This document shows positions 24,622 to 24,966 of a stretch of DNA of 59,340 nt, one piece after another. The notes below the pieces were generated by a model, which was given only the letters and a program-made list of their open reading frames with translations, ran no database searches and was not told the origin of the DNA. Source of the stretch: a virus (lineage: Duplodnaviria; Caudoviricetes); IMG/VR virus record IMGVR_UViG_3300010373_000051, positions 1 to 59,340 of that record; one strand, written 5' to 3'. The first letter of the stretch is position 1. Every line of letters begins with the position of its first letter. The position numbers and the translations under genes are program-made.

Positions 24622-24806
24622 ATCAAGCCCCTCTCTGTAGTTGTCTCTGGGTTAATCAGTCTAGCATGTCGCCATCAAAAATTGCCTCGAAGGGTTTCAC
24701 TAGCTTACGAGTACCGGTCGCACCTGGCGATACGGGAACTCAGCCTTCGAGGACTTCTGCGAGGGTTGCAACCTTACCCCCCGGGTAAGCCCAGCGGTCT
24801 CGCATT

Positions 24807-24919
24807 GCGGGAAACCAGGAATCGAACCTGGGGCTCAAAGCTATGCCTACTCAAGTCGCACTTATTGCAGTTACGTGGCTCTTTCGTTTTTGAGCGTGTT
24901 ACCACTACACCATTTCCCT
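24807..24919 (-). ncRNA. tRNA-shaped RNA with ~49-nt insert replacing the anticodon loop (mini-tmRNA-like candidate)
   Basis: GGGAAA/TTTCCC acceptor, D-arm GTGT-AGTGGTA-ACAC, GCTCAAA/TTTGAGC helix, T-arm CCAGG-TTCGATT-CCTGG. Confidence 0.75.
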
Positions 24920-24966
24920 AGCAGTGTTTCTCCCCGGGCTGCAACCCTTCGAGCCTTAAACTGCCG

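Follow-up and report, generated by a model that had tools for sequence, protein, structure and literature searches.

The DNA analysed here, referred to as the window, is a 59,340-bp IMG/VR virus record with siphophage-type structural genes. Its replication genes encode a family A DNA polymerase, a Prim-Pol/DUF3987 primase, an RNase T-like exonuclease, ERF and a dUTPase, and the named phages closest to it are Lifes, BarnCat, Cassita, LeeroyJenkins and WaterT of Microbacterium paraoxydans, with a primase identity of ~41%. The gene order exonuclease, ssb, tRNA(s), primase is common to the window and these five phages, and the position of ssb in the window matches that of the ssb gene in all five. 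We studied the region between ssb and the primase gene on the minus strand (Table 1). The ~130-nt tail of this region is a copy of a structured element, hereafter the tRNA-trailer module, which has two covarying helices, P1 and P2, and in many phage-like loci follows the 3' end of a tRNA or tRNA-like RNA at a constant distance. The region has no credible open reading frame (ORF), as had been stated in the original prediction for this locus, a reading of the DNA that also called the region structured: the two mechanical ORFs at 24682-24921 (+, 79 aa) and 24774-24905 (-, 43 aa) match no PHROG family, and both overlap the tRNA-like RNA and the module.

Table 1. Features of the window discussed in the text, with coordinates counted from its first base.
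Feature	Position	Strand	Remarks
Window	59,340 bp		IMG/VR virus record; siphophage-type structural genes
ssb, single-strand DNA-binding protein	25080..25487	-	phrog_44 'single strand DNA binding protein', E 4.3e-06; 5' border of the proposed small-RNA unit
tRNA-Arg(CCU), canonical	24966..25039	-	ARAGORN; Rfam tRNA 71.8 bits
Spacer hairpin, 46 nt	24920..24965	-	Between tRNA-Arg and tRNA-like RNA
tRNA-like RNA, 113 nt	24807..24919	-	Acceptor, D and T arms; without 7-nt anticodon loop; predicted fold
tRNA-trailer module (R1)	24677..24808	-	Covariance-model match; tail of ~130 nt
Module AA	24806-24805	-
P1 5' strand	24804-24798	-	7-bp helix; then variable hairpin P1a
Unpaired GUUGCAAC	24772-24765	-
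P1 3' strand	24764-24758	-
GAAGU	24757-24753	-
P2 5' strand	24752-24744	-
P2 3' strand	24693-24685	-
3' arm of 11-bp helix	24686..24696	-	Exact complement of 24953-24943; overlaps P2 3' strand; not conserved in relatives
CAAUUUUU tail	24684-24677	-
Extended -10-like box TGCTAGACT	24658..24666	-	Sequence reading; ~37 nt before primase start codon; putative promoter
Primase-polymerase with DUF3987 (helicase-like) domain	22213..24621	-	Pfam Prim-Pol 7.2e-25, DUF3987 1.4e-12; PHROG DNA primase 4.9e-61

Copies of the module were retrieved with a 19-base pattern taken from the tail, in which GUUGCAAC, four positions of P1 and the first two of P2 are fixed. This pattern matched 34 metagenome loci, 5 genome loci and 2 viral contigs, and a pattern that leaves the palindrome GUUGCAAC free added 2 further viral contigs (4 viral contigs in all). 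Matches were accepted as homologues when P1 complementarity was 7/7 and P2 was followed by CA. This accepted 25 of the 34 metagenome loci as true homologues and left 9 as chance matches; of the 5 genome loci, 2 were true. The first of the two is the chromosome of Microbacterium sp. F51-2R (L052), where the copy probably belongs to a prophage. The second (L054) is a contig binned to Cellvibrionaceae, on which the module lies directly behind a canonical tRNA-Lys(CUU); this contig is assigned to a gammaproteobacterial metagenome-assembled genome, and either the host range extends beyond actinobacteria or the contig has been mis-binned. A covariance model, R1, was then built from 12 MAFFT-aligned copies. 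R1 found 29 copies in 35 sources, with scores of 45-107 bits and a score of 16.7 bits for a short second copy in WaterT. In the window it gave a single full-length match of 68.5 bits (E 1.9e-23), which is partly by construction as the window is one of the seeds. The module is present in the cultured Microbacterium phages BarnCat, Cassita, WaterT and LeeroyJenkins, and compensatory changes are seen in the conserved sequence behind the last tRNA across the intergenic regions of Microbacterium phages; R1 found no module in Lifes. Scans of the window, 5 Microbacterium phage loci and 10 metagenome loci against Rfam 15 gave no family for the module. The module is an RNA family absent from Rfam 15.

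Following N73-C74 of the preceding RNA, the module consists of AA, P1 with the variable hairpin P1a stacked on it, an unpaired stretch, the P1 3' strand, GAAGU, P2 and GGCA. The unpaired stretch after P1a is purine-rich and has GUUGCAAC at its end, and P2 has a CC...GG base and an interior that ranges from 10 to 140 nt across copies. In the window, the 7-bp P1 (with one A-C mismatch pair), a P2 of at least 5 bp, AA, GUUGCAAC, GAAGU and GGCA are all found in register, and P2 has a 9-bp basal stem followed by CAAUUUUU. In the R1 alignment 99.1% of 341 cells are paired, compared with 79.1% after shuffling (0/500), and the covariation score is 0.484, compared with 0.125 (0/500). Both sides vary in 8 of the 12 P1 and P2 pairs, and when the partner columns are shifted by 1-3 at most 50% of the cells are paired. 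The MAFFT-only seed alignment agrees with these values (98.6% against 80.4% paired; score 0.527 against 0.140). Two blocks outside the retrieval pattern are invariant, AA ahead of P1 (29/29 and 28/28 rows) and GGCA behind P2 (30/30). The copy in LeeroyJenkins (L004:1264-1386), which was found through synteny and not by the pattern, has the 8-nt palindrome CUGGCCAG where all other full-length copies have GUUGCAAC, and this exchange hints that self-complementarity itself may be under selection at this site. Conservation and covariation of the flanks, on which the original prediction had made its claim of structure depend, were both found. Some of the pairings that it had listed as local alternatives are the conserved fold: TGCGAG/CTCGCA is P1, CCTCGAAGG/CCTTCGAGG is P2, and GGCAGT/ACTGCT is the helix of the spacer.

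The distance between the module and the preceding RNA is that of a tRNA 3' end. Of the 29 copies, 21 have a T-loop motif 22-24 nt ahead of P1 (22 nt in the window), which is the distance expected for a span that starts at T54 and covers the T stem, the acceptor 3' strand and N73-C74 up to AA. The motif lies at 31 nt in 2 more copies, and the other 6 are truncated or have no strict motif. In the window the module begins 2-3 nt after the acceptor 3' strand. ARAGORN called a tRNA directly in front of the module in only 7 copies, namely tRNA-Leu in BarnCat, Cassita, LeeroyJenkins and WaterT, tRNA-Gln in L019, tRNA-Lys in L054 and, in L007, an unusual call of 94 nt. Most other copies are preceded by a tRNA-like RNA of ~95-120 nt with an expanded or degenerate central arm, and therefore the tRNA-like RNA with its tail in the window is the typical composite. 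As for the tRNA 3' ends themselves, 17 of the 20 ARAGORN tRNAs of the window and related loci encode C after the discriminator base and not the following CA, and the full CCA is encoded only in L012 and L029. The idea that the module interrupts an encoded CCA (Lifes has ACCA where BarnCat has the module) was dropped because 17/20 tRNAs lack C75-A76, module or not; the shared CA belongs to the conserved right flank. In WaterT, gene 69 (L006:1197-1382, minus), a 'hypothetical protein' coding sequence, runs antisense across tRNA-Leu and the module and is probably a spurious call.

The tRNA-like RNA of the window scores 37.2 bits against the Rfam tRNA family RF00005, above the gathering score of 29, and this alignment requires a 35-nt insertion in the anticodon loop. 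In place of a 5-bp anticodon stem with a 7-nt loop, a long arm with a 5-nt loop is predicted, and the central arm is enlarged by ~35-49 nt. ARAGORN made no call for it on the window. Having no normal anticodon loop, this RNA is predicted to be unable to decode. Non-decoding tRNA-like RNAs that serve as processing handles are represented by mascRNA at the 3' end of MALAT1 and by the tRNA-like domain of bacterial YrlA; as in the window, their acceptor and T arms are intact, a working anticodon loop is missing, and they are joined to a structured RNA. YrlA is circularly permuted and is accompanied by the Ro (TROVE) protein. Of the 56 window ORFs scanned, none has a TROVE domain; no Rfam Y-RNA family matched, and the mascRNA model gave only chance-level matches (E 2.7-3.8; 10 homologous loci).

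In its acceptor, D and T arms, the tRNA-like RNA of the window can be aligned with unannotated counterparts in Lifes and locus L031, which have a short central hairpin with a 5-nt loop in place of the long arm of the window. The Lifes RNA (L001:2311-2378) lies between tRNA-Leu and the primase gene and has an encoded CCA and the 5-nt loop UCGCU, and L031 carries its close homologue. A second unannotated tRNA-like type of ~100-113 nt is found in BarnCat (L003:1035-1135) and likewise in WaterT (L006), L008 and L031. Its acceptor strands are GGGCCUG/CAGGUCC, and a T arm and an extended central arm are present; ARAGORN and Rfam give no call, and the BarnCat copy folds with z = -2.7. When the region was compared with the phage collection by blastn, tRNA-Arg alone matched; the tRNA-like RNA of the window gave only chance-level matches in that collection, and that of Lifes matched only itself. 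A pattern search of viral contigs for close relatives of the window tRNA-like RNA found none.

The spacer between tRNA-Arg and the tRNA-like RNA folds in isolation into a two-tier hairpin (-14.4 kcal/mol, 0.67 of the ensemble). Its outer helix pairs GGCAGU (24965-24960) with ACUGCU (24925-24920) around an inner hairpin and terminates at CUA immediately 5' of the tRNA-like RNA. In Lifes (L001:2257-2318) and L031, homologous spacers lie in front of a tRNA-like RNA of this type, and the outer helix is kept in 3/3 sequences, with one C-G pair changed to a G.U wobble (n=3).

The reading that we favour, with a probability of roughly 0.6, is that the region is a phage small-RNA unit with a local fold, in which the module is a trailer for tRNA 3' processing or insulation, with termination where it comes last, and in which long-range pairing is fortuitous. 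The 284-nt stretch would be the distal part of a small-RNA transcription unit between ssb and the primase gene, composed in order of tRNA-Arg, the spacer hairpin, the non-decoding tRNA-like RNA and the tail. The spacer would close on itself, the tRNA-like RNA would make its own acceptor and T arms, and the tail would form P1 and P2 linked by the invariant unpaired AA, GUUGCAAC, GAAGU and GGCA. Host enzymes would cut the transcript at the tRNA-like borders, RNase P at the 5' ends and RNase Z or exonucleases at the 3' ends, and the module would then serve as a 3'-end processing and insulating element. Where the module is last, as in the window, P2 and the U-run would stop transcription before the separately promoted primase gene. 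Thus tRNA 3'-end processing or insulation, with termination where the module is the last element, is the most likely function.

The distribution of U-rich tails bears on termination. The T-run that the original prediction had placed before the primase promoter is indeed present (TTTTT at 24682-24678, followed by TGCTAGACT), and both features recur in relatives. A U-rich tail, defined as three or more U among the first six bases behind GGCA, is found in 17 of 30 aligned rows, and such copies are typically followed by a TAGACT-like -10 box and then the primase gene. The module has a Prim-Pol gene downstream in the window, in the four Microbacterium phages and in L008, L028, L031, L039 and L048, and in L029 the downstream ORF has DUF3987 only. 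The copies in L023, L033 and L049 have no U-rich tail, and an ARAGORN-called tRNA follows within a few bases. U-rich tails before a putative promoter and primase gene, and tRNAs behind copies that are not U-rich, suggest that P2 and the U-run plausibly terminate the small-RNA unit where the module is last. Since P2 and the invariant blocks are kept in the internal copies, a further role tied to the tRNA 3' end, such as processing, protection or insulation, is also suggested.

The original prediction had proposed that long-range helices enclose the tRNA-like RNA. The exact 11-nt complement on which this proposal stands, CTCGAAGGGTT (24953-24943) with AACCCTTCGAG (24696-24686) on the minus strand, is real, and the other listed pairs, AGGGTTGCA/TGCAACCCT, TGCGAG/CTCGCA, CTTACCC/GGGTAAG, CCTCGAAGG/CCTTCGAGG and GGCAGT/ACTGCT, lie where they had been placed; GCCCGG/CTGGGC is present with one G.U. 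The flanks would then pair over ~260 nt around the tRNA-like RNA, as a processing scaffold of the rRNA leader-trailer kind or as a switch against the spacer hairpin and P2. We consider this very improbable. The 5' arm lies inside the spacer hairpin, and the helix competes with P2, which covaries across 30 sequences. In each of the 18 other homologous loci that had 100 nt or more of upstream sequence, we searched the upstream 186-285 nt for the longest Watson-Crick complement of the P2 3' arm. The complements were 4-8 nt long, and an 11-bp counterpart was absent from 18/18; the best two were L017 with 8 nt (13/200 shuffles as long) and L007 with 7 nt (32/200). Lifes has a homologous spacer and tRNA-like RNA, yet no module for the spacer to pair with. 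Over the whole window, maximal exact inverted repeats of at least 11 nt within 300 nt number 5, at the shuffled expectation (mean 4.5, range 1-9, 30 dinucleotide shuffles), so that one such pair somewhere in the window is expected by chance. In rRNA operons, 5' and 3' flanks pair around a stable RNA to guide its processing (PMC10250234). The leader-trailer helices are described as long and conserved, whereas the helix here has 11 bp, occurs in one genome and conflicts with a conserved local helix; conserved flank pairing above chance was found in 0/18 other loci. The alternative pairing AGGGTTGCA/TGCAACCCT has no conserved counterpart either (1/22 loci, L035, above all 200 shuffles). A length of 11 bp is also short for an RNase III stem. 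Of the larger noncoding RNA with an embedded tRNA-like domain that had been suggested, the combination of the tRNA-like RNA with its 3' flank stands as a recurring composite, and the enclosing helix does not. The 11-bp complementarity is private to this genome and most likely fortuitous.

Several observations weigh against the local, trailer-type reading. The 11-nt length against the 3' arm was reached by 0/200 mononucleotide shuffles of the 285 nt upstream. The long-range helix appears in both the minimum-free-energy and the centroid structure of the 297-nt transcript, and nearest-neighbour calculation on the unprocessed 297 nt gave it pair probabilities of 0.48-0.68, compared with 0.28-0.32 for P2 and 0.01 for P1. 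The long-range model has -99.0 kcal/mol and the all-local model -94.8, and the helix is compatible with the tRNA-like fold and P1 (-98.9 kcal/mol). We weighed these thermodynamic values lightly because P1 was given 0.01 although the comparative data prove it; at low odds, folding models would allow a window-specific alternative conformer of the precursor. The minus-strand 297-nt fold is unremarkable (z = -0.62; 48/200 shuffles at least as stable), and the plus strand of the region (24670-24966) folds better, at z = -3.0, which may be a composition effect. Conservation at the positions fixed by the retrieval pattern is partly circular. Only 3 of 341 cells are G.U, and the pairs alone do not separate RNA from DNA hairpins. 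The spacer comparison comprises 3 sequences, and no firm conclusion can rest on so small a number. P2 was missed by the terminator scan, as it encloses 50 nt and the loop limit of the tool is 8. A plain spacer or terminator role leaves 8+5+4 invariant unpaired bases and the P2 of internal copies unaccounted for. That the unit exists at the RNA level, and where it is cut, we infer.

Those invariant bases can also be read as the mark of a new functional RNA class, either a non-HDV (hepatitis delta virus) self-cleaving ribozyme or a palindrome-dimerising RNA, with the tRNA-like RNA as its processing handle. We regard this broader possibility as rather unlikely. Its catalytic form, a new ribozyme that cuts at or near its own 5' end and so frees the 3' end of the tRNA or tRNA-like RNA, is less probable still. 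The closest published precedent for the module is the theta ribozyme, a minimal HDV-like ribozyme that lies within +/-5 nt of phage tRNAs and cleaves in vitro (Kienbeck et al. 2024, PMC10879173). Theta ribozymes are, like the module, structured phage RNAs directly behind tRNAs in phage tRNA arrays, and the job proposed for them is maturation of the tRNA 3' trailer, as suggested here for the module. The hosts of theta ribozymes are of the gut Bacteroidota type, and those of the module look actinobacterial and soil-derived. The placement flush with phage tRNA 3' ends is as in theta ribozymes. The compact form with two covarying helices and invariant unpaired bases is a pattern typical of catalytic or ligand-binding RNAs, and the module is kept in internal copies, which need no terminator. 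However, searches with HDV-like, hatchet, hammerhead, twister and pistol models found nothing, at E up to 10 for the window and up to 5 for 10 homologues, and no HDV-type P2, P3 and P1.1 could be placed by hand on the consensus or on the shortest copies, L017, L028 and L021, no formal descriptor search having been made. The module has two consecutive hairpins and a palindromic bulge, and no nested double pseudoknot, the HDV-type arrangement of P1, P1.1, P2 and P3 with a catalytic C in J4/2, was found by hand. If catalytic, it is therefore of a different class, since it matches no HDV-like model and no HDV fold could be placed on it. To our knowledge, new ribozyme classes are rare. Resemblances to hammerhead, hairpin and pistol ribozymes noticed by eye were rejected, and the Rfam scans were blank. 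No description of the motif was found in the literature searched; the supplementary theta-ribozyme sequence lists, outside that search, could bear on this point.

The module could also be released by tRNA processing as a stable small RNA (sRNA) that acts in trans, through a protein or by self-pairing at the palindromic GUUGCAAC. In the internal copies of L023, L033 and L049 it fills the stretch from a tRNA-like 3' end to the start of the following tRNA, so that tRNA processing would excise it exactly. The palindrome is replaced by a different 8-nt one in LeeroyJenkins, and it has no conserved intramolecular partner: upstream, 1/22 loci exceeded all shuffles (L035; next was L023 at 12/200), and downstream, 0/25 loci exceeded all 100 shuffles (best was L028 at 4/100). 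The alternative palindrome is, however, found in one example only, no partner protein is known, and no antisense target was found in the window searches. GTTGCAAC occurs 3 times in the window, with a copy at 28971 in a coding region and one at 43407 inside a mechanical ORF, and GAAGTCCT is in excess (7 against 2.55 expected). The idea that these are antisense targets was rejected because the GAAGTCCT copies lie in unrelated, mostly coding contexts and the other two GTTGCAAC copies are coding or within an ORF. The sRNAs of the 3' external transcribed spacer (3'ETS)-leuZ type in E. coli are host-encoded, Hfq-dependent sponges with known sRNA partners. Like the module, they are structured RNAs between a tRNA 3' end and a terminator and are released by tRNA processing; unlike them, the module has no partner or target in the window searches. 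We think a trans-acting sRNA improbable, about as much so as a ribozyme.

The low number of G.U pairs would also suit hairpins that act as DNA, either in a small cassette integrating or recombining at the ends of tRNA genes or as part of a replication origin near the primase gene. Intergenic content varies among the close Microbacterium phages (Lifes has 0 copies, WaterT 2, and BarnCat 1 behind a different element), an identical P1 sequence occurs in otherwise unrelated contexts including the Cellvibrionaceae-binned contig, and a Prim-Pol gene directly follows at least 10 copies. Even so, there is one copy per locus except in WaterT, no flanking duplications of tRNA ends were found, and neither a transposase nor an integrase was seen in the vicinity. 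The module always shares the strand of the tRNA, at a spacing from the tRNA end that is fixed to the nucleotide. This fixed strand and spacing relative to the tRNA fit co-transcription, hence an RNA, better than a DNA cassette. The ORFs scanned downstream of the module in L007, L019, L021, L030, L049, L052 and L054 had no Prim-Pol match. A role as DNA is in our judgement highly unlikely. Among chromosomal elements, REP/BIME-like and RtT hairpin repeats resemble the module as ~100-nt folded elements that lie flush behind tRNA genes and are variably present among relatives. These repeats are multi-copy and often carry copies of tRNA 3' ends, whereas the module is single-copy per phage locus, is without tRNA-end duplication and has invariant unpaired blocks.

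With respect to the surrounding genes, the putative promoter TGCTAGACT was not flagged by the consensus promoter scan. By eye, TAGACT, TAGGAT or TAAACT boxes are found at the equivalent site, ~35-45 nt before the primase start, in the relatives L001, L003, L004, L006, L008, L011, L028, L029 and L031. A conserved GATGTGA-containing stretch precedes the primase-side box in several phages, and the box and this stretch are likely a shared promoter/operator. TG-n-TA-n-ACT boxes of a similar kind are found at the start of the small-RNA unit. Searching viral contigs for primase relatives gave 6 matches with an alignment query and none with a single-protein query. The sole module carrier among the 6 is L010 (the same contig as L008), and R1 gave no match at E up to 1 in L009, L011, L012, L013 and L014. 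The closest primase relative, L009 (51% identity), has an ORF at L009:1967-2467 between the small-RNA region and the primase gene whose translation resembles by eye an HNH-type endonuclease, and this locus is without module and without ARAGORN tRNA. Elsewhere in the window, an ORF at 32110-32430 (-) has a T7 gp5.9-like RecBCD-inhibitor domain (Pfam PF25708, E 2.6e-13).

In conclusion, we found a module that is new to Rfam and of an already known kind, that of structured elements behind tRNA genes. The annotation of phage tRNA clusters usually goes one gene at a time and passes over the spacers; in this case an element from such a spacer is a structured RNA family, and it accompanies non-decoding tRNA look-alikes in most copies. 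The locus also calls for caution with single-sequence folding: minimum-energy folding preferred the long-range helix and gave a probability of 0.01 to P1, which covariation proves. The carriers BarnCat, Cassita, WaterT and LeeroyJenkins are non-pathogenic SEA-PHAGES isolates on Microbacterium paraoxydans, and their relative Lifes is without the module. Because cultured carriers and a natural non-carrier are both at hand, the role of the module, whether in tRNA maturation, in termination or in something new, is directly testable.

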